A stretch of DNA of 64,000 nt from assembly GCF_003334335.1 (NCBI RefSeq), contig NZ_QOWQ01000005.1, one strand, 5' to 3'. Position numbers and translations under genes: made by a program. How positions within the stretch are numbered: position 1 is the stretch's first letter; the number at the start of each line of letters is the position of its first letter. A model generated the notes under the pieces. The model made no database searches, was not told where the DNA came from, and was given only the letters and a program-made list of their open reading frames with translations. The stretch is from Escherichia coli. GTDB taxonomy: Bacteria > Pseudomonadota > Gammaproteobacteria > Enterobacterales > Enterobacteriaceae. This document shows positions 35,434 to 55,777 of this stretch, one piece after another.

Positions 35434-37198
<1,765 letters not shown>

Positions 37199-37519
37199 AA
37201 TAAATAGCTGACTTATGGATGTGCTGGGGATTCTATGTATTTAGCACCGGGTTTGCCATTACTTTTCCTTTTTTTGACTTAATTAGCCTCTGTTTGAGCT
37301 GATCTGCCGCTAGATCTTCATTTTTTTTGTATTTTTATGCGATTCATTGAATTTCAGCCAGGATTGCAGCTTTACATCGACAATATCTGGATTCTCGAGT
37401 ATGCAAAATTTTATCTCTATGATTTTTATAATTAAAACATATTTTGTGTATAAAAATCATTCGGGTCGGATTGCTGCGAAAGAAATGATACACTAGCGCG
37501 TCAAAGTAAGTGCGTTATC

Positions 37520-37557
37520 AGTATTCGGGTAGCTGTTGAGCCTGGGGCGGTAGCGTG
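37520..37557 (+). promoter_or_regulatory. JUMPstart element with ops site (RfaH-dependent antitermination) in the waaQ operon leader
   Basis: GGGTAGC...GGCGGTAGCGTG about 50 bp upstream of waaQ; the ops 12-mer is at 37546..37557. Confidence 0.75.
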
Positions 37558-37604
37558 CTTTTTTCTGCTTAACTTAACCAGACAATCACACAAAAGAGTC
37601 GCTA

Positions 37605-38675
37605 GTGGAAAAGCCATTTCGAAAAATCCTGGTCATAAAGATGCGATATCACGGAGATATGTTATTAACTACTCCTGTAATCAGTACACTCAAGCAGAAT
37701 TATCCCGACGCAAAAATCGATATGCTGCTTTACCAGGATACAATTCCGATTTTATCTGAAAACCCAGAAATTAATGCACTCTATGGTATAAGCAATAAAG
37801 GTACGGGAACATTCGATAAAATTAAAAATGCACTTTCACTGATAAAAACTCTGCGTGCGAATAATTACGACCTGGTCATTAATCTTACGGATCAGTGGAT
37901 GGTGGCCCTGCTGGTACGTTGTTTACCTGCTCGTATGAAAATATCGCAGCTTTATGGTCATCGGCAGCATGGCATTTGGAAAAAAAGCTTTACACACTTA
38001 GCGCCTATACACGGTACACATATTGTTGAGCGTAATTTGTCGGTCCTTGAGCCATTAGGTATTACCGATTTTTATACTGAAACAACCATGAGTTACGCCG
38101 AGGATTGCTGGAAGAAAATGCGCCAGGAATTAGATGCACTGGGCGTGAAAGATCATTATGTCGTCATCCAGCCGACAGCCAGACAGATATTTAAGTGCTG
38201 GGACAACGATAAATTTTCTATGGTTATCGATGCGTTGCAACATCGTGGTTATCAGGTTGTGCTGACTTGTGGCCCTTCGGCAGATGATCTCGCTTGCGTA
38301 GATGAAATTGCACGAGGCTGCCAAACAAAACCTATTACCGGCCTTGCCGGTAAAACACGTTTTCCTGAACTGGGCGCATTAATTGATCATGCAGTGCTCT
38401 TTATTGGTGTGGATTCTGCGCCGGGGCATATTGCAGCGGCTGTGAAGACGCCAGTTATTAGCCTGTTTGGGGCCACTGATCATGTATTCTGGCGTCCATG
38501 GACCGAGAATATTATTCAGTTCTGGGCGGGGAATTATCAAAAAATGCCTACCCGGCACGAACTTGACCGCAACAAAAAATATCTTTCTGTTATTCCAGCG
38601 GAAGATGTCATTGCCGCTACGGAAAAGCTGTTGCCAGAAGATGCACCTTCAGCTGACAGGAATGCGCAATTATGA
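37605..38675 (+). CDS. waaQ: LPS core heptosyltransferase III (GT9)
   Basis: GT9 N-terminus KILVIKMRYHGDML aligns with waaC/waaF N-termini; ORF begins with GTG at 37605, alternative ATG at 37641. Confidence 0.8.
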   Translation: MEKPFRKILVIKMRYHGDMLLTTPVISTLKQNYPDAKIDMLLYQDTIPILSENPEINALYGISNKGTGTFDKIKNALSLIKTLRANNYDLVINLTDQWMVALLVRCLPARMKISQLYGHRQHGIWKKSFTHLAPIHGTHIVERNLSVLEPLGITDFYTETTMSYAEDCWKKMRQELDALGVKDHYVVIQPTARQIFKCWDNDKFSMVIDALQHRGYQVVLTCGPSADDLACVDEIARGCQTKPITGLAGKTRFPELGALIDHAVLFIGVDSAPGHIAAAVKTPVISLFGATDHVFWRPWTENIIQFWAGNYQKMPTRHELDRNKKYLSVIPAEDVIAATEKLLPEDAPSADRNAQL

Positions 38676-39796
38676 TCGTGGCATTTTGCTTATATAAATA
38701 TTTTCCATTTGGTGGGCTACAGCGTGACTTTATGCGTATTGCCTCAACAGTTGCCGCACGGGGCCACCATGTTCGGGTATATACACAGTCGTGGGAAGGC
38801 GATTGCCCGGAAGCATTTGAGCTTATTCGCGTACCGGTTAAATCCCATACTAACCATGGACGTAATGCAGAATATTATGCCTGGGTTCAAAACCATCTGA
38901 AGGCACATCCCGCTGATCGCGTTGTTGGCTTTAATAAGATGCCTAGGCTGGATGTTTATTTTGCCGCCGATGTCTGTTATGCCGAGAAAGTGGCGCAAGA
39001 AAAGGGATTTTTCTATCGTTTAACATCGCGCTATCGCCATTATGCTGCATTCGAGCGAGCGACTTTCGAACATGGTAAATCGACGAAACTTATGATGTTG
39101 ACCGATAAGCAAATCGCCGATTTTCAGAAGCATTACCAAACTGAACCAGAACGTTTTCAAATTCTTCCCCCTGGTATCTATCCTGACAGAAAATACAACG
39201 CGCAAATCCCAAACAGTCGTGAAATTTATCGCCAGAAAAATGGCATCACTGAACAACAAAACTTATTGCTGCAGGTTGGTTCAGATTTTGGTCGTAAAGG
39301 TGTGGATCGCTCAATTGAAGCTTTGGCATCGTTACCAGAATCGTTACGCCATAATACGTTGTTGTTTGTTGTTGGCCAGGATAAACCGCGTAAATTTGAA
39401 GTGCTGGCAGAAAAACTCGGTGTGCGTAGTAAAGTGCATTTCTTTTCCGGGCGGAATGATGTGTCTGAATTAATGGCAGCCGCTGATTTATTAATGCATC
39501 CCGCTTATCAGGAGGCTGCAGGTATTGTTCTCCTTGAGGCAATTGCCGCGGGATTACCTGTGTTGACGACTGCGGTATGCGGATACGCACACTATATCAC
39601 AGATGCTAATTGTGGAACGGTCATCGCTGAACCTTTCTCCCAGGAACAATTAAATGACGTTTTACGTAAAGCGTTAACTCAATCTCCATTGCGCATGGCC
39701 TGGGCGGAGAATGCTCGGTATTACGCCGATACTCAGGATTTATACAGCCTGCCGGAGAAAGCGGCAGATATCATTACAGGTGGTTTAGATGGTTGA
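38672..39796 (+). CDS. waaG: LPS core glucosyltransferase I (GT4)
   Basis: 374-aa GT4 ORF; 4-bp overlap with waaQ. Confidence 0.9.
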
Positions 39797-40586
39797 ATTA
39801 GAAGAGCCACTTGCCACACTCTGGCGTGGTAAAGATGCCTTTGCAGAAGTTAAAAAACTGAATGGCGAGGTCTTCCGTGAACTGGAGACGCGTCGCACAT
39901 TACGCTTTGAACTGGCCGGCAAAAGTTATTTCCTCAAATGGCACAAAGGGACGACCCTAAAGGAGATTATAAAAAATCTGCTCTCATTGCGGATGCCCGT
40001 TTTAGGTGCAGACAGAGAGTGGCACGCTATTCATCGACTGCATGATGTCGGTGTTGATACGATGCACGGAATAGGATTTGGTGAAAAAGGGTTAAATCCA
40101 TTAACTCGCACATCATTTATTATTACCGAAGATCTCACTCCCACAATTAGCCTTGAAGATTATTGTGCAGATTGGGCGGTCAACCCGCCTGATGTACATA
40201 TTAAGCGTATGCTGATCGCGCGTGTGGCAACCATGGTGCGCAAAATGCATGCAGCAGGGATTAATCACCGTGATTGTTATATCTGCCACTTTTTACTCCA
40301 TTTGCCATTTACTGGCCGGGAAGATGAATTAAAAATTTCGGTTATCGATCTGCACCGGGCACAGATACGTGCAAAAGTACCACGTCGTTGGCGGGATAAA
40401 GATTTGATTGGTTTATATTTCTCATCAATGAATATTGGTCTGACGCAGAGAGATATCTGGCGATTTATGAAGGTTTATTTTGGGATGCCTTTACGCGATA
40501 TTTATAGACTTGAGATTGATTTACTTAAAAAGGCAAGGATTAAAGCAGGAAAAATAGAAGCAAGAACAATAAGAAAAAACTTGTAA
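39789..40586 (+). CDS. waaP: LPS core heptose(I) kinase
   Basis: 265-aa kinase-like ORF; 8-bp overlap with waaG. Confidence 0.9.
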
Positions 40587-40618
40587 ATAGTATTTTATTA
40601 CAAAAAGGGATTCTAAAA

Positions 40619-41599
40619 TTGTTGAAATATAGAAACTTCGTTGCTAAGAAGAAAAATTTATACCAAAACGAAGTGTCGTATGTTAAAAATTTACATATTG
40701 CACTATGCTTTGACCGTGAATTCATAATGCCAGCGGGTGTTGCATTATATTCAATTATATCCAACAATAGACATATTAACCTTCATTTTCACCTTCTTAT
40801 ATCAGGCATAGAAGAAAAGGAGTGTTCAGCTTTTTACGAACTAGAAGGTCCTAATACATCAATATCTGTATATTATATAACTGATAAATTTGACATTAAT
40901 CCGGATACATTAGTTCTTGGTATTCCTTTATCAACATGTTTACGTTTTTTAATCCCAGAAGTTATTGATGATAAAATAAATAAGATACTTTATCTTGACT
41001 GTGATGTCATATGTAATGGTCCTTTAGATGAACTGGTTGATTATAATTTAAATGCTGATATTGCATGTGTAATTCCAGATTCGCCAGAAATGCAAGAACG
41101 TGTAAAAAAATTAGACTATGGCATTGAGTTTATTAATTATTTTAATGCCGGGGTTATGTTTATTAATACCAGCGAATGGAAAAAAAATAATATAACACAA
41201 AAAGCGTTAGAAATGATCAACAGTGGAAAAGTATATAGGTATGCAGATCAGGATGTGCTCAATATTTTACTTAATGGACGAGTGCATTACCTTGATAAGA
41301 AGTACAATAATAAGACAACATTGTCAGTACGATGTGATGAAGAACAAAAAAACTTGCCCAACACAATTATAATGCATTATGTTACCCAGAATAAACCATG
41401 GTACAAAATATTTAGAGCACAAAATTTTGATCATTATTTTTCAAATTCTCCTTGGAAGAACCATAAAAGAAATCTAGCTCCATCATCAAGTGAGATTAGG
41501 TTAAAGTCTAAAGTTTTTTGGCTAGAAGGAAAATATTGTAAAGCCATTTCTTATTATTATAAGTATTTACTTGTTAAATTATTTGGCTTAAAGATTTAG
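40619..41599 (+). CDS. GT8-family LPS core glycosyltransferase in the slot after waaP
   Basis: 326-aa ORF with GT8 motifs YLDCDVIC (DxD) and HYVTQNKPW; very AT-rich; exact orthology (waaS-position gene versus an extra GT8 paralogue) not resolved. Confidence 0.6.
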   Translation: MLKYRNFVAKKKNLYQNEVSYVKNLHIALCFDREFIMPAGVALYSIISNNRHINLHFHLLISGIEEKECSAFYELEGPNTSISVYYITDKFDINPDTLVLGIPLSTCLRFLIPEVIDDKINKILYLDCDVICNGPLDELVDYNLNADIACVIPDSPEMQERVKKLDYGIEFINYFNAGVMFINTSEWKKNNITQKALEMINSGKVYRYADQDVLNILLNGRVHYLDKKYNNKTTLSVRCDEEQKNLPNTIIMHYVTQNKPWYKIFRAQNFDHYFSNSPWKNHKRNLAPSSSEIRLKSKVFWLEGKYCKAISYYYKYLLVKLFGLKI

Positions 41600-41612
41600 C
41601 TGGAATGAAATT

Positions 41613-42692
41613 ATGAAAATAGCCTTTATTGGCGAAGCTGTTTCTGGATTTGGCGGCATGGAAACAGTCATTCGTGATGTTATTACTACCTTCAGGCAAC
41701 AACATATCCAAAGTGAAATTTTTTTCTTTTGTCGTAATGACAAAATGGATAAGGGATGGCTGGAAGGTATTAAGTACTCGTGTTCATTTTCCAATATTCG
41801 CTTAGGTTTTTTGCGTCGCGCGAAACATATTCATGCTTTAAGCAAATGGCTTCATGATTATCAGCCAGATGTTGTTATTTGTATTGACGTGATCTCGTGT
41901 TTGTATGCGGCCAAAGCTCGTAAAAAATCGGGGATTGATGTACCTGTATTTTCATGGCCGCATTTTTCTTTAGATCATAAAAAACATGCCGAATATATCA
42001 CCTGTGCCGACTATCATTTAGCCATCAGCTCTGGTATTAAACAGCAAATGATTAGCCGGGGTGTACCAGAATCGACAATAAACGTTATTTTTAATCCCGT
42101 TGAGGCGAAAAATTCAGTCATTCCTGCACCCGGGGAAGGCGAAACGGCAACATTCATTTATGTTGGGCGCATGAAATTTGAAGGCCAAAAGCGCGTAAAA
42201 GATCTGCTTGATGGCTTATCACAAGTGCAAGGTGACTGGAAACTTCATGTATTGGGAGATGGCTCCGATTTCGAAAAATGCCAGGCTTATGGTAGAGGAT
42301 TAAATATTGATGATCGAATTGTCTGGTATGGTTGGCAACAACATCCCTGGAAATTAGTTCAGCAAGATATTAAAAAAGTGAGTGCATTATTACTCACGTC
42401 ATCTTTTGAAGGTTTCCCAATGACTCTACTTGAAGCCTTGTCGTGGGGGATCCCTTGTATCAGTGCAGATTGTGTCTCCGGGCCTGTTGATATCATTCAG
42501 CCTGATGTTAATGGTCATTTATATCAACCGGGGGATATGACCGGTTTTGTTGCTCTTCTCAATAAATACATAGCCGGTGAAATTCACATCGCACATGAAA
42601 AAATTCCGGCGTCGATCGATAAATTTTATCAACCGAAATATTACGACAGATTGCAAAAGATAATTATTTCTGTTATTTCCCGGAGGAAATAA
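41613..42692 (+). CDS. waaB: LPS core alpha-1,6-galactosyltransferase (GT4)
   Basis: 359-aa GT4 ORF; length and position match waaB. Confidence 0.8.
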   Translation: MKIAFIGEAVSGFGGMETVIRDVITTFRQQHIQSEIFFFCRNDKMDKGWLEGIKYSCSFSNIRLGFLRRAKHIHALSKWLHDYQPDVVICIDVISCLYAAKARKKSGIDVPVFSWPHFSLDHKKHAEYITCADYHLAISSGIKQQMISRGVPESTINVIFNPVEAKNSVIPAPGEGETATFIYVGRMKFEGQKRVKDLLDGLSQVQGDWKLHVLGDGSDFEKCQAYGRGLNIDDRIVWYGWQQHPWKLVQQDIKKVSALLLTSSFEGFPMTLLEALSWGIPCISADCVSGPVDIIQPDVNGHLYQPGDMTGFVALLNKYIAGEIHIAHEKIPASIDKFYQPKYYDRLQKIIISVISRRK

Positions 42693-43711
42693 TGCAGCAG
42701 GTTTTTTTCCAGGAGACTGAGTTTCTCAATTCGGTTATTGATTATAATCATAAAATAGAAGCAGAAAATCTTTGTCTGGATATTGCTTATGGGACTGACA
42801 AAAATTTTCTTTTTGGATGCGGAATATCGATTGCTTCAATATTAAAATATAATGAAGGAAATCAATTATGCTTTCATATTTTTACTGATTATTTCGGTGA
42901 TGACGATCGCAAATATTTTGATGCCCTGGCCAGGCAATATAAAACAAGAATTAAGATATATTTAATTAATGGTGATCGACTCCGTTCATTACCCTGCACC
43001 AAGAACTGGACTCATGCTATTTATTTTCGTTTTGTTATCGCCGATTACTTTTTTAATAAAGCACCCAAAGTTCTTTATCTGGATGCAGATATTATTTGTC
43101 AGGGAACTATAGAACCACTTATCAATTACACGTTTTCTGAACATACAGTCGCAATGGTTGTTACAGAAGGACAAAAAGACTGGTGGGCAAAACGTGCTCA
43201 TTCGTTAGGTGTTGCTGGGATTGCTAATGGTTACTTTAACTCCGGTTTTTTACTGATTAATACTAATCAATGGACGAATGAGCGGGTTTCTGCACGGGCC
43301 ATTGCAATGTTAAGTGATCCAGAGATAGTCAAAAAAATAACACATCCTGATCAGGATGTATTAAATATGTTATTGGCAGACAAACTTGTTTATGCTGATA
43401 TTAAATATAACACTCAGTTTAGTTTAAATTATCAACTAAAAGAAAGTTTTAAAAACCCAGTAACTAACGATACAGTTTTTATTCATTATATTGGTCCAAC
43501 TAAACCCTGGCATGACTGGGCCTGGGATTATCCAATATCACAAGCTTTTATGGCGGCAAAAAATGCTTCACCATGGAAGGATACTGCGTTATTGAAACCG
43601 GTTAATAGTAATCAATTAAGATACAGTGCTAAACATATGTTGAAAAAAAAGCAATATATCAAAGGATTTGGCAACTATCTTTTGTATTTTATAAAAAAGC
43701 TAAAGCATTAA
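42692..43711 (+). CDS. waaO: LPS outer-core GT8 glycosyltransferase (waaO/waaI type)
   Basis: 339 aa; GT8 motifs YLDADIIC and HYIGPTKPW; donor sugar specificity cannot be read from sequence. Confidence 0.7.
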   Translation: MQQVFFQETEFLNSVIDYNHKIEAENLCLDIAYGTDKNFLFGCGISIASILKYNEGNQLCFHIFTDYFGDDDRKYFDALARQYKTRIKIYLINGDRLRSLPCTKNWTHAIYFRFVIADYFFNKAPKVLYLDADIICQGTIEPLINYTFSEHTVAMVVTEGQKDWWAKRAHSLGVAGIANGYFNSGFLLINTNQWTNERVSARAIAMLSDPEIVKKITHPDQDVLNMLLADKLVYADIKYNTQFSLNYQLKESFKNPVTNDTVFIHYIGPTKPWHDWAWDYPISQAFMAAKNASPWKDTALLKPVNSNQLRYSAKHMLKKKQYIKGFGNYLLYFIKKLKH

Positions 43712-43779
43712 TACTGATAATCTATACTCTAAATAATTCGAGTTGCAGGACAAAAAGCCAGTGGCGTTTTGAGGAACGC

Positions 43780-43870
43780 TTGCGTTGGCCCTGAAATGCC
43801 GAGTAACTCGCCGATGCAGCACATGCAACTTGAAGTATAACGAGTATATAAAGTAATGATATAAGGATAG
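43780..43870 (+). repeat. possible ERIC-flank-like fragment in the waaO-waaJ spacer
   Basis: GCAGCACATGCAACTTGAAGTATAACGAGTATA resembles the flanking arm of the ERIC copy at 51001..51082; no 44-bp core present. Confidence 0.35.
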
Positions 43871-43874
43871 CCTT

Positions 43875-44891
43875 GTGAACTCATTTCCTGCCATAGAGAT
43901 AGATAAAGTTAAAGCCTGGGATTTTAGGCTTATTGATGAAAATACTGCTGAAAGTTTAAATGTTGCCTATGGTGTCGATTCCAATTATCTTGATGGTGTA
44001 GGTGTTTCCATTACTTCAATTGTCATTAATAATCGACATGTTAATCTTGATTTTTATATTATTGCTGATGTTTATAACGACGATTTCTTTCAAAAAGTTG
44101 AGAAACTTGCTGAGCAATACCAATTAAGAATCACACTTTATAGAATAAATACTGATAATCTTCAGTGCCTGCCTTGTACACAAGTCTGGTCAAGAGCAAT
44201 GTACTTCCGTTTATTTGCTTTTCAATTATTGGGAGTAACACTTAATCGTTTGCTTTATCTTGATGCCGATGTAGTTTGTAAGGGAAATATTAGTCAACTA
44301 TTGCATTTAGAGTTTAATGGAGCGGTGGCTGCAGTAGTCAGGGATGTAGACCCAATGCAGGAAAAGGCGGTAGTCAGATTATCTGATCCTGAACTTCGGG
44401 GGCAGTATTTTAATTCTGGTGTCGTTTACTTAGACCTAAAAAAATGGACAGAAGCAAAACTAACCGAAAAAGCACTGTCTATTCTTATGAGTAAAGATAG
44501 TATTTATAAGTATCCTGACCAGGACGTTATGAATGTCCTACTAAAAGGGATGACAATATTCCTGCCACGTGAGTTCAATACTATATATACAATAAAAAGT
44601 GAGTTAAAAGATAAAACGCATCAAAAATATAAAGAGTTGATAAAAGAGGATACTCTTCTTATTCATTATACTGGGGCCACCAAGCCGTGGCACAAATGGG
44701 CAATTTATCCATCGGTAAAATACTATAAAATAGCTTTAGAAAGATCCCCCTGGAAAGATGACTCACCACGAGATGCAAAATCAATTATTGAATTCAAAAA
44801 AAGATATAAACATCTGTTAGTGCAACATCATTATATCTCAGGACTCATTGCAGGAGTGTGTTATCTTTGCCGAAAATATTACCGTAAATAA
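43875..44891 (+). CDS. waaJ: LPS outer-core GT8 glycosyltransferase (waaJ/waaR type)
   Basis: 338 aa; GT8 motifs YLDADVVC and HYTGATKPW. Confidence 0.7.
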   Translation: MNSFPAIEIDKVKAWDFRLIDENTAESLNVAYGVDSNYLDGVGVSITSIVINNRHVNLDFYIIADVYNDDFFQKVEKLAEQYQLRITLYRINTDNLQCLPCTQVWSRAMYFRLFAFQLLGVTLNRLLYLDADVVCKGNISQLLHLEFNGAVAAVVRDVDPMQEKAVVRLSDPELRGQYFNSGVVYLDLKKWTEAKLTEKALSILMSKDSIYKYPDQDVMNVLLKGMTIFLPREFNTIYTIKSELKDKTHQKYKELIKEDTLLIHYTGATKPWHKWAIYPSVKYYKIALERSPWKDDSPRDAKSIIEFKKRYKHLLVQHHYISGLIAGVCYLCRKYYRK

Positions 44892-44908
44892 CATTTAACT
44901 GGTTTAAC

Positions 44909-45607
44909 ATGATTCAGAAGAATAAAATCAAAGATTTAGTTGTTTTTACCGATGAAAATAACTCAAAGTATCTCAATGTATTAAATGACTTTCTTTCTTA
45001 TGATATTAATATCATCAAAGTTTTTCGTTCTATAGATGATACAAAAGTCATGCTTATTGATACCGATTACGGTAAATTGATACTTAAAGTTTTTTCGCCT
45101 AAAGTAAAACGCAACGAACGTTTCTTTAAATCTCTTTTAAAGGGAGATTATTATGAACGCCTTTTTGAGCATACTCAAAAAGTGCGTAACGAGGGGCTAC
45201 ATTCTCTCAATGATTTTTATTTGTTGGCAGAACGGAAAACATTACGTTTTGTCCATACTTATATCATGCTTATCGAATATATCGATGGCGTAGAGTTGTG
45301 TGATATCCCCGATATTGATGAAACTTTAAAAAATAAAATTCAACAATCAATTCGTTCATTACACGAACACGGTATGGTATCTGGTGATCCTCACCGCGGT
45401 AATTTTATTATTGAAAATGGTGAAGTACGCATTATTGATCTTTCAGGAAAACGGGCATCTGCACAACGTAAAGCGAAAGATCGTATTGATTTAGAGCGAC
45501 ATTATGGTATTAAGAATGAGGTTAAAGATCTCGGTTATTATCTTTTAGTTTATCGTAAAAAAATACGTAATCTTATGCGGCGTTTGAAAGGGAAGCCAGC
45601 ACGATAA
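44909..45607 (+). CDS. waaY: LPS core heptose(II) kinase
   Basis: 232-aa kinase-like ORF; length and position match waaY. Confidence 0.75.
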   Translation: MIQKNKIKDLVVFTDENNSKYLNVLNDFLSYDINIIKVFRSIDDTKVMLIDTDYGKLILKVFSPKVKRNERFFKSLLKGDYYERLFEHTQKVRNEGLHSLNDFYLLAERKTLRFVHTYIMLIEYIDGVELCDIPDIDETLKNKIQQSIRSLHEHGMVSGDPHRGNFIIENGEVRIIDLSGKRASAQRKAKDRIDLERHYGIKNEVKDLGYYLLVYRKKIRNLMRRLKGKPAR

Positions 45608-45678
45608 AGTAAAAGTCTTACATTTAAACGTCTTCGTCAGGACATTTCTATGCGGAGTTCTTATTTCACAGGTTTATC

Positions 45679-46488
45679 ATGAAGAATATTAGATACATTG
45701 ACAAAAAAGATGTTGAAAACCTGATAGAAAGTAAAACGTCTGATGATGTTATTATTTTTCTTTCCGGCCCCGCATCGCAAAAAACACCATTGTCAGTGCT
45801 GCAGACAAGGGATGTTATTGCTGTCAATGGTTCTGCACAATATCTATTAAGTCATAATATTATTCCCTATATTTATGTACTTACCGATGTTCGCTTTTTA
45901 CATCAACGGCGTGATGATTTTTATAAATTTAGCCAGAGAAGTCGTTATACCATCGTAAATGTTGACGTTTATGAACATGCTTCTGAAGAAGATAAGCGGT
46001 ACATCCTTCAAAACTGCCTGGTACTACGTTCATTTTACCGCAGAGAAAAAGGTGGATTGATCAAGAAGATCAAGTTTAATATTTTGAGCCGAATTCATAA
46101 AGAGCTCCTGATCTCTGTACCTTTTTCTAAAAAAGGTCGTCTGGTTGGCTTTTGCAAGGATATTAACCTCGGTTATTGTTCATGCCATACCGTTGCTTTT
46201 GCTGCAATCCAAATAGCCTATTCGCTGAAGTATGCTCGTATTATCTGTTCAGGCCTTGATTTAACGGGTAGCTGTTCGCGTTTCTATGATGAAGATAAGA
46301 ATCCTATGCCCTCAGAGTTGACTCGGGATTTATTCAAAATTTTACCATTTTTCCGTTTTATGCGTGAAAATATAGAAGATATCAATATTTATAATTTATC
46401 CGACGATACTGCAATTCAATATGATATTATTCCCTATATGAAAATATCCGAAATTGAAGAGCCGTGTGTTTATGAAAAAATAAGCTAA
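45679..46488 (+). CDS. waaZ: LPS core biosynthesis protein (KdoIII-associated, WaaZ-like)
   Basis: 269-aa ORF in the waaZ position; assigned by position and composition. Confidence 0.6.
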   Translation: MKNIRYIDKKDVENLIESKTSDDVIIFLSGPASQKTPLSVLQTRDVIAVNGSAQYLLSHNIIPYIYVLTDVRFLHQRRDDFYKFSQRSRYTIVNVDVYEHASEEDKRYILQNCLVLRSFYRREKGGLIKKIKFNILSRIHKELLISVPFSKKGRLVGFCKDINLGYCSCHTVAFAAIQIAYSLKYARIICSGLDLTGSCSRFYDEDKNPMPSELTRDLFKILPFFRFMRENIEDINIYNLSDDTAIQYDIIPYMKISEIEEPCVYEKIS

Positions 46489-46540
46489 TATTTTATATGT
46501 GTTTATTACGTGTTATAAATTATATTGGAGTTGGCTAATA

Positions 46541-47683
46541 ATGATTAAAAAAATAATATTTACCGTCACACCAATATTTTCTATACCGCCAAAAGGAGCT
46601 GCAGCGGTTGAAACATGGATTTATCAGGTCGCAAAAAGACTTTCGATTCCAGTAACTATCGCCTGTATTCGAAACGAAGGTTACCCAACCTACACAAAAG
46701 TAAATGATCACTGTGATATTCACTACATTGGTTTTAGTCGAGTCTATAAACGACTTTTCCAAAAGTGGACTCGACTTGATCCTGTGCCATATTCTCAGCG
46801 TATTTTAAATACCCAACCTAAAAACACTGATCCGAAAGACTCTGTTATTGTTATCCACAATAGCATGAAGCTGTATAAACAGATTCGTAGCAGAAGCCCT
46901 CACGCGCAGCTAGTTATGCATCTTCATAATGCTTTCGAGCCAGGTGAGTTAGACAAAAATGCAAAGATAATTGTTCCTAGCCAGTTTCTTTTCGATTTCT
47001 ATTCGGAAAAAATGCCTGATGCAAATATTGCTATTGTGCCTAATGGTTTTTGTTCTGAATCGTATGAACAAAATAATACTGAAGATTTGAGGCAGAAACT
47101 GAACATTGATGCAAATGATACCGTGTTATTATTTGCAGGAAGGATATCACCAGATAAAGGTTGCCTGATGCTTATGGAGGCTTTTAATCAGCTGAATAAG
47201 ATACAAGATAACCTCAAACTGGTGATTGTCGGAGATCCTTTTGCCAGTAAAAAAGGCGAAAAAGCTGAATATCAGAAAAAAGTTCTGGATGCAGCGAAAG
47301 CTATTGGAGCGCAATGCATTATGGCGGGTGGACAGCCTCCAGAGCAGATGCATAACTATTACCGTTTAGCAGATTTAGTTGTTGTTCCTTCTCAGGTAGA
47401 AGAAGCTTTTTGTATGGTAGCTGTTGAAGCGATGGCGGCAGGTAAACCAGTGCTTGCCAGTCAAAAAGGTGGAATTAGTGAGTTTGTTCTGGAAGGAATT
47501 ACAGGCTATCACCTTGCAGAGCCTATGACATCTGAAAGTATTCTCGCGGATATTAAGCGCGTTTTGGCGGATGCTGACAGAGCTCAAATTGCTAAAAATG
47601 CCCGAAATTTTGTTTTCTCAAAATATAGCTGGGAACATGTTACTCAGCGTTTTGAAGCACAAATACAAGACTGGTTTGGTTAA
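46541..47683 (+). CDS. waaK: GT4 LPS outer-core transferase (WaaK-like, putative GlcNAc transferase)
   Basis: 380 aa from MIKKIIF, preceded by ggag; GT4 E-x7-E motif (VEEAFCMVAVEAMAAGKPV); occupies the terminal slot before waaL. Confidence 0.7.
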   Translation: MIKKIIFTVTPIFSIPPKGAAAVETWIYQVAKRLSIPVTIACIRNEGYPTYTKVNDHCDIHYIGFSRVYKRLFQKWTRLDPVPYSQRILNTQPKNTDPKDSVIVIHNSMKLYKQIRSRSPHAQLVMHLHNAFEPGELDKNAKIIVPSQFLFDFYSEKMPDANIAIVPNGFCSESYEQNNTEDLRQKLNIDANDTVLLFAGRISPDKGCLMLMEAFNQLNKIQDNLKLVIVGDPFASKKGEKAEYQKKVLDAAKAIGAQCIMAGGQPPEQMHNYYRLADLVVVPSQVEEAFCMVAVEAMAAGKPVLASQKGGISEFVLEGITGYHLAEPMTSESILADIKRVLADADRAQIAKNARNFVFSKYSWEHVTQRFEAQIQDWFG

Positions 47684-47702
47684 AAATTATTGGATTTGAA
47701 GA

Positions 47703-47738
47703 GCCTGCCTGAACTTAATGTCAGGCAGGCTTTTTTTT
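47703..47738 (+). terminator. intrinsic terminator after waaK (bidirectional, shared with convergent waaL)
   Basis: GCCTGCCTGA-acttaatg-TCAGGCAGGC perfect 10-bp stem followed by an 8-T run. Confidence 0.7.
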
Positions 47739-48954
47739 ATTTATTCCGCATTGCTAACAGTAAACCAACAATCAAGCCAATTGGTTTGAGATCAACTTCC
47801 TCGAAGTTACCTCGAATAATATAAAAGCTTACAAGCGTTAAAAATAGTAGTAATTGACCATTATAAGGAGTGACGACAACTGTTTTAAACGTTGCATTAG
47901 CTGTCTCTTTGATAATAGAGCCATACAGATAAAGTAAAGCGAGTAGTCCAGCCAAACCCGCTGCAAACCAAATTGACAAAACAACGTTGTGTGGCCCAAT
48001 GGATTGCCTGAACTTCCATGACGGAAAATCTACAACACGCTTATTATATATTGCATGGTAAATATCATCGCCGTAGCCATATCCCTTAAGAGGATTTTCC
48101 ATAATTAATGTCCACGCCGTACCTTGAGTACCATTGGTATAGCGATAAGAACTGTCGGTCTGTTGAAGTTTATAAATAAGCCTGTCTTTACCAGCATGAT
48201 CACCTTTATAGGTAAATACACCCACTGCGGCAACAGAAATAACGATGGAAGTCAGCATCAATAATTTCCACTGACGATTTAAGATTAACCATAGCAGAGT
48301 CACTATGAATACTGCCAGCCATGCACCACGAGACAGCGTTCCTAATAGCAGAAATAAGAAAACTGCACTAAAAATTACGAATGCTATTTTATAAGAGGTT
48401 TTCTTGATAAGCCAAAGGTTTAATAATGCTGGAAACAGAAACACCATTGAATCGGAAATACTACGGTGTTCATAGGTGGAAAATGGCATTATTCCTTTAT
48501 TATAATCCTGAATATAAAGAATAAGTTCAACAAGACAACGTAAGCCAAGTCCGGTAACTAATGAGTATAGTACAATTTTACCAATGCTTTCATTATCTTC
48601 ATCTTTTAATAATGCAGGTATAAGTAAACTATAGGCCAAAAATCCTTTAAGTACCGTATTACTGAATTCTTTAAAACTGATTTTCAGATCAGGTGATATA
48701 AAAGTAGCATATAAAAGAATGAGTGATAGTGCCAGGACACTATAAAAAAGATTATTTTTATAGAGTACTTTAAATGTTCCCGGAGCACGAGAAACTTGAT
48801 AGATTACCGTAATAATCATTAGTATAGATATGATGTGTTTATAACGGGTTATACCATCAAGGAAAAAGGTTGCAATAAAGAGGAATACCAACGCTTTATT
48901 CCAGTACGGTTTCCACTTTTCTTTATTACGTAGCGCCAGCGAGGCTGTTAACAT
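47737..48954 (-). CDS. waaL: O-antigen ligase
   Basis: 405-aa polytopic membrane ORF, Wzy_C-type; convergent with the waaK operon; AT-rich. Confidence 0.8.
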   Translation of the reverse strand: MLTASLALRNKEKWKPYWNKALVFLFIATFFLDGITRYKHIISILMIITVIYQVSRAPGTFKVLYKNNLFYSVLALSLILLYATFISPDLKISFKEFSNTVLKGFLAYSLLIPALLKDEDNESIGKIVLYSLVTGLGLRCLVELILYIQDYNKGIMPFSTYEHRSISDSMVFLFPALLNLWLIKKTSYKIAFVIFSAVFLFLLLGTLSRGAWLAVFIVTLLWLILNRQWKLLMLTSIVISVAAVGVFTYKGDHAGKDRLIYKLQQTDSSYRYTNGTQGTAWTLIMENPLKGYGYGDDIYHAIYNKRVVDFPSWKFRQSIGPHNVVLSIWFAAGLAGLLALLYLYGSIIKETANATFKTVVVTPYNGQLLLFLTLVSFYIIRGNFEEVDLKPIGLIVGLLLAMRNK

Positions 48955-48992
48955 TGCTTCTCCACCATCTTAAATAATATATAACGTATTAA

Positions 48993-49949
48993 TCAGGAAT
49001 TGATTTTATTAAATACCGTTTCTGCAGTCAGATGAGCAAGATCTTTATCTGGTGCCCTACAAACCACCTGATTCTTCCCATATCCGCCAATTAATCCCGG
49101 ATCGGTTGGTCCATAAACCGTGATATTCGGTCGATCCAGTGCTGCAGTTAAATGACTTAACCCAGTGTCTACCGATACCACGAATTTCGCTCCGGCCAGC
49201 ACACGGGCAACACCTTCCAGACTCATCTTCGGCAATACTTCAACATAAGCAAATCCTTCCGCCAGTCGTTTCGCCCGTTTTTCCTCATGCGGCGCACCCC
49301 ACGGAAGTTTAATGCGAATCCCTGAATCTGCCAGTAAACCAATCAATTCTCGCCAGTGTTCTTCCGGCCAGTGTTTATCATCACGGGTCGTCGCATGAAG
49401 AAATACGGCATATTCGCCAGCATCTGTAGGCAGGTTCGTCAGAAAATGCTGTGCGATAGCATAATCGCCCTGGGTTTGCGGTTTGCTATAGCCCAGACTT
49501 TTGGCAAAAAGTTCGCGGATGCGTTCTACGGCGTGCTGCTGTTTTGCAATATGATGTTTACGATTGTAAAACAGGCTGGCTAAAGGTTCGCGAGCGGTTT
49601 GCCAGTCCATTCCATGCTTTACGCCATGCGCCAGACGCGTCACCAGCGCCGCGCTTTTTACCAGCCCCTGAGCATCGATAACTGCGTCATAGTTCTCTGC
49701 TTGTAGCGCTTCACGAAACGCTTTGCGTTCAGCTTTTATGGGGGCCGAGAACCAGGCTTTACGCCAGCGACGTATTGCCACAGGAATAACTCGCTCAACG
49801 GCGGCGTGCCAGGAAGGAATCTGTGCGAACCCTTCTTCCACCACCCAGTCAAACTTAATCCCTGGGATTGCCTGCTGGGCATCAGTGAGTGCGGGCAACG
49901 TATGGAGAACATCGCCCATCGACGATGTTTTAACGATCAAAACCCGCAT
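48993..49949 (-). CDS. waaC: LPS heptosyltransferase I (GT9)
   Basis: 318-aa GT9 ORF MRVLIVKTSSMGDVLH. Confidence 0.9.
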   Translation of the reverse strand: MRVLIVKTSSMGDVLHTLPALTDAQQAIPGIKFDWVVEEGFAQIPSWHAAVERVIPVAIRRWRKAWFSAPIKAERKAFREALQAENYDAVIDAQGLVKSAALVTRLAHGVKHGMDWQTAREPLASLFYNRKHHIAKQQHAVERIRELFAKSLGYSKPQTQGDYAIAQHFLTNLPTDAGEYAVFLHATTRDDKHWPEEHWRELIGLLADSGIRIKLPWGAPHEEKRAKRLAEGFAYVEVLPKMSLEGVARVLAGAKFVVSVDTGLSHLTAALDRPNITVYGPTDPGLIGGYGKNQVVCRAPDKDLAHLTAETVFNKINS

Positions 49950-49952
49950 CCG

Positions 49953-50999
49953 TCAGGCTTCCTCTTGTAACAATAGAGAGTTGAGTTCTTCCAGCACGCG
50001 CTGGGGAGTAATGTCGATCAAGCTCTGGTGATAACCTTCTGCGGCGTCGCCTTTGCGTACTTTGTGATAGCCGGTAATCAGGCGGATCACGCGCGCTTTA
50101 TGGGATAGCGGCGGTGTGAAGTCCGGGCTACTCGGACCATACAGGGCAACCAGCGGACGATTGAGCGCCGCCGCAACGTGCATCAGGCCAGAATCGTTAG
50201 TGACAATGGCTTTACAGGCTGCAATCAGGATAACCGCTTGATCAAGCTGTGTTTCCCCCGCCAGGTTCCGGCACCATGCCTGCTGCTCGGTATTTAAAGC
50301 GGCAAGAATCTCATTGCCCGCTTCATGATCTTTCGCCGAGCCAAACAGAACCACTTGATAACCTTCATCAATCAGTTGCTTTGCCAGTTCCGCATAGTGG
50401 TAGTGTGGCCAGCGTTTTGCCGGACCAAACTCCGCACCCGGGCAAAAACCAATCATTGGACGTTCTGATGAAAGCGAAAATTGATTACAGGTATATGATT
50501 TTTCACCTTCGCTCACCTGCAACTGCGGCCATAACAATGGCTGCGGCAGATCTTGTGCGGTACGCATAATACCTTTGTCATAGGCCAGCGCCACATAGCG
50601 TTCCACCATCAGCGGCCAGGCTTCTTTATCCAGCACACGCACATCGTTGAGTAAACCGTAGCGCATTTCGCCGCGCCAGCCGGTGCGATGAGGAATACCC
50701 GCGAAGAAAGGCACTAATGCGGATTTGAAGGAGTTGGGTAAAACGTAGGCGCGGTCGTAACGTTTTTCGCGCAGGCTATGACCCAGCTTGCGGCGTTCGC
50801 CAATTTCCAGCGCCCCGTGACCAAGCGGCATAGGAATGGCTTCGTTAACTTCCGGCATCCGCGATAATAATGGACGGCACCATGCCGGTGCCATCACGTC
50901 GATTATCGCCTGGGGATAGCGCGCCTGGAGCGTGCGATAGAGACTTTGCGACATCATCATGTCGCCAACCCATGACGGGCCGATCACCAATATTTTCAT
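49953..50999 (-). CDS. waaF: LPS heptosyltransferase II (GT9)
   Basis: 348-aa GT9 ORF MKILVIGPSWVGDMMM. Confidence 0.9.
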   Translation of the reverse strand: MKILVIGPSWVGDMMMSQSLYRTLQARYPQAIIDVMAPAWCRPLLSRMPEVNEAIPMPLGHGALEIGERRKLGHSLREKRYDRAYVLPNSFKSALVPFFAGIPHRTGWRGEMRYGLLNDVRVLDKEAWPLMVERYVALAYDKGIMRTAQDLPQPLLWPQLQVSEGEKSYTCNQFSLSSERPMIGFCPGAEFGPAKRWPHYHYAELAKQLIDEGYQVVLFGSAKDHEAGNEILAALNTEQQAWCRNLAGETQLDQAVILIAACKAIVTNDSGLMHVAAALNRPLVALYGPSSPDFTPPLSHKARVIRLITGYHKVRKGDAAEGYHQSLIDITPQRVLEELNSLLLQEEA

Positions 51000-51000
51000 T

Positions 51001-51082
51001 CACTTCATCCTTCAAGCTGTCTCTGCGGCGGCTGCCTGCGTTCACTCCGGTCACTTACTTTTGTAAGCTCCCGGAGATTCAC
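51001..51082 (-). repeat. ERIC (IRU) repetitive element at the hldD/waaF junction
   Basis: Minus strand reads GTGAATCtCCgGGAGCTTACAaAAGTAAGTGACcGGaGTGAaCG, matching the ERIC core (ERIC1R and ERIC2 primer regions) at about 39 of 44 positions. Confidence 0.75.
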
Positions 51083-52059
51083 TTAGTTGCTGCCTTGATA
51101 CTGCTCGAATGATTTTGTGAATTTACGTTGATGTCGCGATTCAGCCAGGCCATGTATTCCGTTACGCCTTCGGCAACGGTTTTGAACGGTTTGTCATAAC
51201 CCGCCGCGCGCAGATTCGTCAGATCTGCCTGCGTGAATGCCTGATAGCGGCCTTTCAGTTTATCCGGGAACGGAATGTATTCGATCTGGCCTTTCTTGTG
51301 ATAAGCAAGCGTTGCATCGGCTACCGCCTGGAAGGATTCCGCACGACCAGTACCGAGGTTGAAGATGCCGGAAACGCCATTTTCCAGGAACCACAGGTTT
51401 ACATCTGCCACGTCGCCAACATAGACGAAGTCGCGTTTAAAGTTCTCGCTACCTTCGAACAGTTTCGGTGATTCACCGTTATTAAGCTGGGTGTTGAGAT
51501 GGAAAGCGACGCTCGCCATGCTGCCTTTATGGCCTTCACGCGGTCCATAAACGTTGAAATAACGGAAGCCAACAATCTGTGAGTTTGCTTCCGGCAGAAT
51601 TTGACGAACATATTCATCAAACAGGAATTTCGAGTAACCGTAGACGTTCAACGGTTTTTCGTACTCGCGGGATTCAATAAAGTCGGAAGTGCGACCGCCG
51701 TAAGTGGCTGCGGATGAAGCGTACAGGAACGGGATTTCACGCTCCAGGCAGTAGTGCAGCAGCTCCTTGGAGTATTGATAGTTGTTATCCATCATATACT
51801 TGCCGTCCCACTCGGTGGTGGAAGAGCACGCGCCTTCGTGGAAAATCGCTTCGACATCGCCGAACTCTTCGCCAGCCATAATCTGGATCAGGAAGTCTTC
51901 CTTATCCATATAGTCTGCGATATTCAGGTCCACCAGGTTCACAAACTTGGTGCCGTCTTTCAGGTTGTCCACCACCAGAATATCGGTGATGCCTTTGTCA
52001 TTCAGGGCTTTAACGATGTTGCTGCCGATAAAGCCCGCGCCGCCGGTAACGATGATCAT
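51079..52059 (-). CDS. hldD: ADP-L-glycero-D-manno-heptose 6-epimerase, with a variant C-terminal tail
   Basis: 326 aa; Rossmann motif [11 protein letters not shown]; after ...WLNRD the ORF continues [17 protein letters not shown] and its stop codon lies inside an ERIC repeat. Confidence 0.9.
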
Positions 52060-52272
52060 AACTGTAACCTTCGAATTGTGGAGTCAGAGACAATCTCAGA
52101 CACGAATACTTCTATCATATCACTACACGGCGCTGGCTACAGCCATTCACCGAAAGTGGTATGCCTGAGCGTGATTTATGCTTATTTTTTGACAAGTACA
52201 AATGCTTCATCTCGTATCAACCTATGGCTTTCGGTAATATGTGCTGAAATTTGCCCAGTCTGGAGAATCGCG

Positions 52273-54742: not shown

Positions 54743-55777
54743 ATGATGAACAGCACCAATAAACTTAGTGTTATTATTCCGTTATATAATGCGGGCGATG
54801 ATTTCCGCACTTGTATGGAATCTTTAATTACGCAAACCTGGACTGCTCTGGAAATCATTATTATTAACGATGGTTCAACGGATAATTCTGTTGAAATAGC
54901 AAAGCATTACGCAGAAAACTATCCGCACGTTCGTTTGTTGCATCAGGCGAATGCTGGCGCATCGGTGGCGCGTAATCGTGGGATTGAAGTGGCAACGGGC
55001 AAATATGTCGCTTTTGTCGATGCTGACGATGAAGTCTATCCCACCATGTACGAAACGCTGATGACCATGGCGTTAGAGGACGACCTCGACGTGGCGCAGT
55101 GCAACGCTGACTGGTGTTTTCGTGAAACGGGAGAAACCTGGCAATCCATCCCCACCGATCGCCTTCGCTCAACCGGCGTCTTAACCGGCCCGGACTGGCT
55201 GCGGATGGGGCTTTCTTCGCGCCGTTGGACTCACGTTGTCTGGATGGGGGTTTATCGCCGTGATGTTATTGTTAAAAATAACATTAAATTTATTGCCGGA
55301 TTACATCATCAGGATATTGTCTGGACAACAGAATTCATGTTTAACGCGCTGCGTGCGCGATATACCGAGCAATCATTATATAAATATTATCTGCATAATA
55401 CGTCAGTGAGTCGGTTGCATAGACAAGGGAATAAAAACCTTAATTATCAACGTCACTATATTAAGATTACCCGCCTGCTGGAGAAATTAAATCGAAATTA
55501 TGCCGACAAAATTATGATTTATCCGGAATTTCATCAGCAAATAACTTACGAGGCATTGCGTGTTTGCCATGCGGTGCGCAAAGAGCCGGATATTCTTACC
55601 CGCCAACGGATGATTGCCGAGATATTTACTTCCGGTATGTATAAGCGCCTGATTACCAATGTGCGCAGCGTGAAGGTCGGTTACCAGGCGTTACTGTGGT
55701 CTTTCCGCTTATGGCAATGGCGCGACAAAACGCGGTCGCACCATCGCATTACGCGTAGCGCCTTTAATTTGCGCTAG
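54743..55777 (+). CDS. waaH: GT2 glycosyltransferase (LPS core glucuronic acid transferase WaaH-like)
   Basis: 344 aa; GT2 motifs DGSTDNS and DADD. Confidence 0.8.
   Translation: MMNSTNKLSVIIPLYNAGDDFRTCMESLITQTWTALEIIIINDGSTDNSVEIAKHYAENYPHVRLLHQANAGASVARNRGIEVATGKYVAFVDADDEVYPTMYETLMTMALEDDLDVAQCNADWCFRETGETWQSIPTDRLRSTGVLTGPDWLRMGLSSRRWTHVVWMGVYRRDVIVKNNIKFIAGLHHQDIVWTTEFMFNALRARYTEQSLYKYYLHNTSVSRLHRQGNKNLNYQRHYIKITRLLEKLNRNYADKIMIYPEFHQQITYEALRVCHAVRKEPDILTRQRMIAEIFTSGMYKRLITNVRSVKVGYQALLWSFRLWQWRDKTRSHHRITRSAFNLR

Follow-up and report, generated by a model that had tools for sequence, protein, structure and literature searches.

Within a 64,000-nt window of an Escherichia coli genome (NZ_QOWQ01000005.1; the whole stretch analysed), positions 40619-48954 hold eight genes which almost certainly form the outer-core part of a chromosomal waa locus of the E. 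coli R2 core type. All eight open reading frames were found at the coordinates given in the preliminary description, and they coincide with the genes that RefSeq calls in a genome of 100% identity, whose gene list is the same. The operon begins upstream of this block. The waaQ operon leader carries a JUMPStart element (37519..37557, + strand; Rfam RF01707, 53.1 bits, gathering score 35) that includes the ops sequence GGCGGTAGCGTG, with the ops motif matched at 37546-37557. RfaH loads at JUMPStart/ops for antitermination. Three genes follow on the same strand, assigned from how RefSeq annotates the identical genome and from amino acid identity to their K-12 counterparts: waaQ, encoding the HepIII heptosyltransferase (37605..38675; 98%), waaG, encoding glucosyltransferase I, which places GlcI onto HepII (38672..39796; 95.7%), and waaP, encoding the HepI kinase (39789..40586; 90.9%).

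The block itself opens with wabA (40619-41599, + strand), which has a TTG start and encodes a 326-aa GT8 glycosyltransferase; the gene was named wabA in R2 by PMC13293308. Six further genes share this orientation. These include waaB (41613-42692), encoding the alpha-1,6-galactosyltransferase that attaches a Gal branch to GlcI (NCBIfam NF007396, 593 bits, cut-off 385; 92% amino acid identity to K-12, 63% to Salmonella), and waaO (42692-43711), encoding a GT8 enzyme for alpha-1,3-linked GlcII (NF011718, 572 bits). The PGAP/NCBIfam product label for WaaO, "3-alpha-galactosyltransferase", derives from Salmonella WaaI. The waaO-waaJ spacer is occupied by an unstranded 126-bp ERIC-like imperfect palindrome (43723..43848; its 25-nt inverted arms are 80% complementary), which is absent from K-12 (alignment gap at 43727-43846). 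Beyond it lie waaJ (= waaR; 43875-44891), annotated as the GT8 enzyme for alpha-1,2-linked GlcIII (89.6% amino acid identity to K-12 WaaJ, 58% to Salmonella WaaJ), and waaY (44909-45607), the HepII kinase gene (NF007684, 394 bits against 248; 92% amino acid identity to K-12). The gene previously described as waaZ-like (45679-46488) encodes a bona fide WaaZ, the KdoIII transferase, of 269 aa (equivalog NF007333, 546 bits against 473). Its 88% identity to K-12 WaaZ covers residues 1-259 only, and the DNA alignment stops inside the 3' end of the gene at ~46443. The last gene in this direction, waaK (46541-47683), encodes a 380-aa GT4 alpha-1,2-N-acetylglucosaminyltransferase (NF012028, 724 bits against 618) with the E-x7-E motif EAFCMVAVE at residue 288 and 74% amino acid identity to Salmonella WaaK. 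According to Heinrichs 1998, as cited in PMC13293308, WaaK supplies the terminal GlcNAc branch required by the ligase.

On the opposite strand, waaL (47737-48954) encodes a 405-aa O-antigen ligase of the R2/Salmonella type (NF012031, 651 bits against 277). It is the final gene of the hldD-waaF-waaC-waaL operon and adjoins waaC (48993..49949, - strand), the heptosyltransferase I gene, whose product is 95% identical to that of K-12. The alignment boundary at which K-12 DNA homology resumes falls within the waaC 3' end, at ~49050. Between the convergent waaK and waaL, a terminator scan matched the pattern of a GC-rich 15-bp hairpin with a T run after it (47698..47735, + strand), which is likely the terminator of the waaQ operon. 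Altogether, NCBIfam equivalog or subfamily models exceeded their curated cut-offs for WaaB, WaaO, WaaY, WaaZ, WaaK, and WaaL. Every entry of the earlier gene list (GT8, waaB, two GT8 genes, waaY, waaZ-like, GT4 with E-x7-E, and 405-aa waaL) was confirmed.

The order waaQ-G-P-wabA-B-O-J/R-Y-Z-K with a convergent waaL adjoining waaC is that of R2, and PMC13293308 gives wabA, waaK, and the R2 waaL as the R2 gene set. The LPSTyper scheme was validated on 4,549 genomes, with ECOR11 as the R2 reference (PMC13293308). Its primers R2-F and R2-R matched exactly at 46025-46045 (+) and 46614-46634 (-), and in-silico PCR from waaZ to waaK gave a product of 610 bp, equal to that published. The K-12 typing primer was searched for in the sequence and was absent. 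BLASTP, NCBIfam, and the R2 primers therefore agree with the initial reading of a Salmonella/R2-like rather than a K-12 gene set. The R2 call is sequence-based, resting on the 2025 typing scheme with its primers and gene names. Likeness to R2 was judged via this scheme and genome copies, and on that basis no difference was detected from the E. coli R2 waa locus (prototype F632/F576; Heinrichs et al. 1998, J Biol Chem 273:8849). Among E. coli genomes, strain 65COLEC was 100% identical over 9.5 kb, and 484 genome records showed at least 99% identity. Of 5,426 complete genomes, 501 (9.2%) contained a match that spans 80% or more of the query; the published R2 frequency is 8.15%. This is the well-known, canonical R2 variant of the locus, and it is ordinary.

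The first gene of the block stands apart. At 29.7% GC, wabA is the most AT-rich of the eight. By BLASTP, WabA did not match K-12 WaaS and was 29-31% identical to WaaO and WaaJ. Its relatives carry Pfam domains PF01501 and PF08437, and WabA scored 184 bits against the NCBIfam WaaO/I model, under the cut-off of 461. WabA retains intact DxD (DCD at residue 127) and KPW motifs, and the gene is kept in one slot across Escherichia (99%, 79-82%), Citrobacter (63-64%), and Salmonella (63-66%). K-12 WaaS, which is unrelated to WabA and occupies the equivalent slot, decorates the Kdo region along with WaaZ, and a Kdo-linked Gal has been reported for R2. WabA is the sole block enzyme credited with no step in the published R2 outer core, which leaves the gene-to-sugar account short by one enzyme. 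One tentative and on balance doubtful possibility is that WabA and WaaS are functional counterparts, with WabA adding a non-stoichiometric alpha-linked hexose to the Kdo/inner-core region in the LPS of R2, Salmonella, and Citrobacter. If so, swapping slot S would adjust the inner-core glycoforms separately from the module for O-antigen attachment.

Base composition set the block apart from most of the window. Its GC content was 35.5%, compared with a mean of 51.6% (SD 3.6%) for 1-kb windows outside the waa region. The eight 1-kb windows within the block rank among the nine lowest of 64, the ninth being the one that spans its 5' edge. A flat GC profile, named beforehand as speaking against the preliminary description, was not seen; the profile was far from flat. 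The contrast drawn with the flanks is real with respect to the wider window, but it must be qualified for waaQGP, which are also below average (42-45%). Less of the accompanying suggestion, that AT-richness fits exchanged cassettes, can be retained. The low GC is genuine, but the corresponding blocks of K-12 (33.3%) and Salmonella (36.7%) are equally AT-rich, so composition is not a specific mark of R2. AT-richness is a long-standing trait of this locus and is not in itself a sign of recent transfer.

DNA alignment to K-12 showed 86.6-88.3% identity for waaB, waaO, waaJ, waaY, and waaZ, and 98.7% for the remaining window. No K-12 homology was detected by this alignment at 40497-41611 and 46444-49049. 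Likewise, K-12 WaaS, WaaU, and WaaL had no BLASTP match (E<1e-3) to the slot-S, terminal, and ligase proteins of the block. Best matches of at least 98% to the K-12 waaS/waaZ/waaU/waaL set had been named as evidence against an R2-like block; WaaZ reached 88%, and the others had no match. The waaQGP genes showed 87-92% DNA identity to K-12. As they are already divergent from K-12 and low in GC, the divergent haplotype starts at about 37100 rather than at 40619. Compared with K-12, yibB/htrL (1.28 kb) is also missing from the window, at 52108-52169, and two ERIC-type insertions of ~125 bp each are present. With these changes, the block is not quite the only variable segment.

The similarity to K-12 raises the question of whether the core locus is of the K-12 type or a hybrid of K-12 and R2. 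Protein identity to the K-12 orthologues reaches 88-92% for WaaB, WaaO, WaaJ, WaaY, and most of WaaZ, and hybrids that pair waaS with waaK, or wabA with waaU, have been reported in E. coli (PMC13293308). However, the three diagnostic genes (wabA, waaK, and the 405-aa waaL) are all R2 versions, the K-12 primer has no site, and the block is nearly identical to hundreds of ordinary E. coli records (the 484 at 99% or above). Such a locus is exceedingly improbable, being refuted by the BLASTP, NCBIfam, and K-12 primer results. A strain with this block could instead be thought to make a Salmonella-type core, with a Glc-Gal-Glc backbone. The gene order is the same as in Salmonella loci L005 and L006 (Q-G-P-GT8-B-I-J-Y-Z-K, with L convergent), and PGAP calls waaO a galactosyltransferase. 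Yet WaaO is 88% identical to the K-12 glucosyltransferase WaaO and only 56% identical to the Salmonella galactosyltransferase WaaI, values which favour a predicted glucosyltransferase over a galactosyltransferase. As the validated scheme also types the locus as R2, a Salmonella-type core is extremely unlikely. Judged by its genes, the locus is R2 specifically and not of the Salmonella chemotype.

A further reading holds that recent transfer from Salmonella brought in the block or its waaK-waaL end, making R2 a literal K-12/Salmonella recombinant. WaaK and WaaL are like their Salmonella counterparts and unlike the K-12 proteins, the GC of the block is low, and the title of Heinrichs 1998, as cited in PMC13293308, calls R2 "hybrid". 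Protein-by-protein comparison with L005, however, gave 56-74% amino acid identity for every gene, with WaaK (74%) and WaaL (65%) standing beside WaaZ (69%), WaaY (66%), WaaB (63%), and WabA (63%). Because WaaK and WaaL are no closer to Salmonella than the other block proteins are, the divergence is even and old. Nearer relatives of the ligase exist within Escherichia (E. fergusonii, 97%; E. albertii and E. marmotae, 90%) than in C. rodentium (71%) or Salmonella (65-66%). Low GC, being common to the K-12 and Salmonella blocks, cannot date a transfer. We therefore regard recent transfer as very unlikely. Colinearity and even identity to Salmonella instead indicate an old architecture in common, with R2 no recent import, and R2 is better seen as a Salmonella-shared arrangement than as a recombinant "hybrid".

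We infer the enzymatic steps and core chemotype from published R2, K-12, and Salmonella work and from the genotype. The published R2 core composition is Glc3-GlcNAc-Gal-Hep3-Kdo (PMC7504096). The waaQ operon would be transcribed from a promoter upstream of JUMPStart/ops, with RfaH carrying RNA polymerase through the ~10-kb AT-rich operon. On lipid A-Kdo2-Hep, WaaG would add GlcI first, followed by the alpha-1,6-Gal branch from WaaB, GlcII from WaaO, GlcIII from WaaJ/R, and lastly the alpha-1,2-GlcNAc branch from WaaK. WaaP, WaaY, and WaaQ would decorate the heptose region, and WaaZ may contribute a non-stoichiometric third Kdo. The convergently encoded WaaL would then ligate O-antigen or ECA to the finished core, for which the GlcNAc branch is probably required. 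The R2 core that these steps would build is GlcNAc-(1,2)-Glc-(1,2)-Glc-(1,3)-[Gal-(1,6)]-Glc on Hep3-Kdo.

Core type determines the sugar used by WaaL for O-antigen attachment and affects the action of phages, colicins, antibodies, and antimicrobial peptides on the cell. For these reasons the R2 call is of use in strain typing. Genetic and chemical descriptions of R2 date back to 1998, and R2 is present in ~1/11 E. coli genomes, so current understanding is unchanged. Of general interest are the evenly diverged match to Salmonella, the independent recombination of two modules across genera, and WabA as an enzyme without an assigned role in the published R2 outer core.

Compared with known systems, this locus has in common with the K-12 waa locus (waaQGPSBOJYZU / waaL) its flanks, operon layout, waaB/O/J/Y/Z orthologues, and AT-richness. 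The two differ in slot S, where K-12 has waaS and this locus the unrelated wabA, and in the terminal module, where K-12 has a GT9 waaU with a 419-aa waaL and this locus a GT4 waaK with a 405-aa waaL. The K-12 terminal gene and ligase length had been given correctly at the outset (K-12 waaL is 1260 nt, or 419 aa). Further differences are the length of WaaZ (283 aa in K-12, 269 aa here), the waaO-waaJ ERIC-like insert, which K-12 lacks, and the terminal sugar, which is HepIV in K-12 and GlcNAc in R2. With the Salmonella enterica waa locus it shares a wabA-like GT8 gene, gene-for-gene colinearity, and a GlcNAc-dependent ligation logic. Protein sizes are also close (WaaZ, WaaK, and WaaL of 269, 381, and 404 aa in Salmonella; 269, 380, and 405 aa here), whereas the second backbone transferase is WaaI (Gal) in Salmonella and WaaO (Glc) here. 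The Citrobacter sp. locus L007 has a wabA-like GT8 gene (63% identity) in the matching slot, then waaB, O, J, Y, and Z, but its terminal module is K-12-like, with a GT9 gene, a ligase of 423 aa, and a WaaZ of 284 aa. This pairing of a wabA-like gene with a terminal module of the K-12 kind indicates independent assortment of the two modules. R2 and K-12 represent old alleles of a single locus, differing by two swappable modules: slot S, which holds wabA or waaS, and the terminal module, which consists of waaK and a 405-aa waaL or of waaU and a 419-aa waaL.

The outer-core LPS block of the waa locus (40619-48954) lies in an E. coli chromosomal segment that keeps the K-12 gene order (uhp genes, spoT, waa locus, kbl-tdh). 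It resolved into eight intact ORFs, at the positions given in the preliminary description. A 326-aa GT8 gene (wabA, 40619-41599) filled the first slot and was followed by waaB, waaO, waaJ, and waaY in that order, a 269-aa waaZ, a 380-aa GT4 gene (waaK, 46541-47683), and a minus-strand waaL of 405 aa (47737-48954). Exactly these eight genes were present in the RefSeq annotation of 65COLEC, an E. coli strain that is 100% identical over the 9.5-kb query region. Curated NCBIfam cut-offs were exceeded by WaaB, WaaO, WaaY, WaaZ, WaaK (724 bits against the 'lipopolysaccharide N-acetylglucosaminyltransferase' model, cut-off 618), and WaaL (651 bits, cut-off 277).

A 2025 typing study defined the R2 core type by waaK, the R2 waaL, and wabA after waaP, with R2-specific primers in waaZ and waaK that yield a 610-bp product (PMC13293308). 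Both primers matched the window exactly in silico, at 46025 and 46634, and spanned 610 bp. The K-12 waaU primer found no match in the window with up to three mismatches allowed. K-12 identity was ruled out by protein BLAST and by DNA alignment to the MG1655-derived strain MGY. Hybrid K-12/R2 loci have been published in E. coli (PMC13293308), and this reading was ruled out as well, as all three diagnostic genes were R2-type. The locus is R2, and a Salmonella chemotype is very unlikely. The preliminary description had observed a Salmonella/R2-like gene set in place of the K-12 set and read it accordingly; both observation and reading were correct, subject to three refinements that concern the core type, the base composition, and the upstream limit.

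This R2 locus is already known and common in E. coli. We surveyed 5,426 complete E. coli genomes with the 9.5-kb query, and 501 (9.2%) had a match over at least 80% of its length; 484 records were at least 99% identical to it. The published R2 frequency is 8.15% (PMC13293308). The 80-90% identity band held 1,024 records (18.9%), a share that would fit the K-12 core type, published at 18.4% (PMC13293308).

Alignment to K-12 (MGY) covered 99.6% of the bases that lie outside the waa region, with 98.7% identity. Two segments of the locus had no homology to K-12. One (40497-41611) contains wabA, where K-12 has waaS. The other (46444-49049) comprises the waaZ 3' end, waaK, waaL, and the last waaC codons, and its K-12 counterpart contains waaU and a 419-aa waaL. 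One module junction falls inside the waaZ 3' end. Between these segments, DNA identity to K-12 was 88.3% across waaB and waaO (41612-43726) and 86.6% across waaJ, waaY, and most of waaZ (43847-46443), with an intervening insertion of ~120 bp in the waaO-waaJ spacer (43727-43846) that is absent from K-12. Upstream, waaQ, waaG, and waaP (37100-40500) showed 87-92% DNA identity to K-12 against the 98.7% background, while their proteins were 91-98% identical. Raised divergence began in the waaA-waaQ spacer near 37100, and identity recovered to 93-98% within waaC. The divergent haplotype therefore reaches upstream of the 40619 limit first proposed, to ~37100. The divergence of waaQGP appears to reflect linkage with the variable modules. 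R2 and K-12 are thus two old haplotypes that span the entire waaQ operon and differ further in two modules without homology. A second presence/absence difference from K-12 within the window was the lack of yibB/htrL at 52108-52169, with ~60 bp between hldD and kbl compared to ~1.28 kb in K-12.

Two ERIC-type palindromes absent from K-12 were observed. An imperfect palindrome of ~125 bp between waaF and hldD (50998-51122) had 3 mismatches to each of the ERIC1R and ERIC2 primer sequences. This element replaces the end of hldD, resulting in an ORF of 326 instead of 310 aa that is identical to K-12 through residue 309. The other, a 126-bp ERIC-like palindrome with 25-nt arms (43723-43848), corresponds to the ~120-bp insertion described above and expands the waaO-waaJ spacer to 163 bp, compared to 39 bp in K-12. 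Its ends resemble those of the waaF-hldD element, while the centres differ.

Base composition agreed with the preliminary description in that the block was far more AT-rich than its flanks, with 35.5% GC versus 51.6% (SD 3.6%) averaged over the 1-kb windows beyond the waa region. The eight that lie in the block, and a ninth across its 5' edge, made up the nine lowest of all 64; wabA was the lowest-GC single gene (29.7%). However, the corresponding blocks of K-12 (33.3%) and Salmonella (36.7%) are equally AT-rich, so low GC was rejected as a sign that a block is R2 or recently transferred. Every version of the locus has this high AT content, which is an old feature that outer-core genes share. 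GC also dipped a second time, less strongly (~43-45%), at an ORF colinear with K-12 waaH (54743-55777), outside the main waa locus. The waaH product is a GlcUA transferase acting on HepIII.

WabA scored 184 bits against the NCBIfam WaaO/I model, far under the cut-off of 461, indicating that it is a GT8 paralogue in its own right. Both the DxD and the KPW motif of WabA are intact. Relatives were found in Escherichia (99% and 79-82% identity), Citrobacter (63-64%), Salmonella (63-66%), and Gilliamella and Hafnia (~44%). Our literature search found wabA named in E. coli by one paper, without an assigned function (PMC13293308); a review is confined to WaaS and WaaZ of K-12 (PMC6286764). No WabA step is needed to explain the reported R2 core composition, Glc3-GlcNAc-Gal-Hep3-Kdo (PMC7504096).

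The known loading site of RfaH, a JUMPStart element that contains the ops sequence, lies 48 bp upstream of waaQ. Convergent waaK and waaL are separated by a 15-bp hairpin and T run (47698-47735), the only notable site across 37-52.4 kb, where counts of promoter-like and terminator-like sites equalled shuffle expectation. The enzymatic steps are inferred from published R2, K-12, and Salmonella work. WaaG would add GlcI first, followed by Gal (WaaB), GlcII (WaaO), and GlcIII (WaaJ/R). WaaK would then supply the GlcNAc branch required by the ligase (PMC13293308), allowing O-antigen ligation by WaaL. WaaP, WaaY, and WaaQ would modify the heptoses, and WaaZ would add KdoIII, as in R2 and K-12 types.

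Two Salmonella enterica waa loci (L005 and L006) shared the window order: waaQ-G-P, a wabA-like GT8, waaB-I-J-Y-Z-K, and a convergent 404-aa waaL. Their GT8 between waaP and waaB (L005 1-951; L006 9001-9873) was 63-66% identical to WabA and belongs to a protein cluster of 4,127 sequences. With this gene in the slot, the Salmonella locus is gene-for-gene the same as R2. Identities to L005 were 63% for WabA, 63% for WaaB, 56% for WaaO/I, 58% for WaaJ, 66% for WaaY, 69% for WaaZ, 74% for WaaK, 65% for WaaL, and 84% for WaaC. Recent import from Salmonella was ruled out, as the block genes are evenly 56-74% identical and WaaL has closer relatives in Escherichia itself (E. fergusonii, 97%; E. albertii and E. 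marmotae, 90%; compared to Citrobacter rodentium, 71%, and Salmonella enterica, 66%). Such even identities are also at odds with Salmonella waaK-waaL having been grafted recently onto a K-12 backbone. These comparisons fit a model in which R2 keeps the architecture common to Salmonella, and K-12 has replacements in two slots. A Citrobacter sp. locus (L007, 9001-17294) joins a wabA-like GT8 to a terminal module in the style of K-12, which comprises a 284-aa WaaZ, a GT9 gene, and a ligase of 423 aa; only in its first slot is it the converse of K-12. This combination and the published E. coli K-12/R2 hybrids show that the two modules assort independently.
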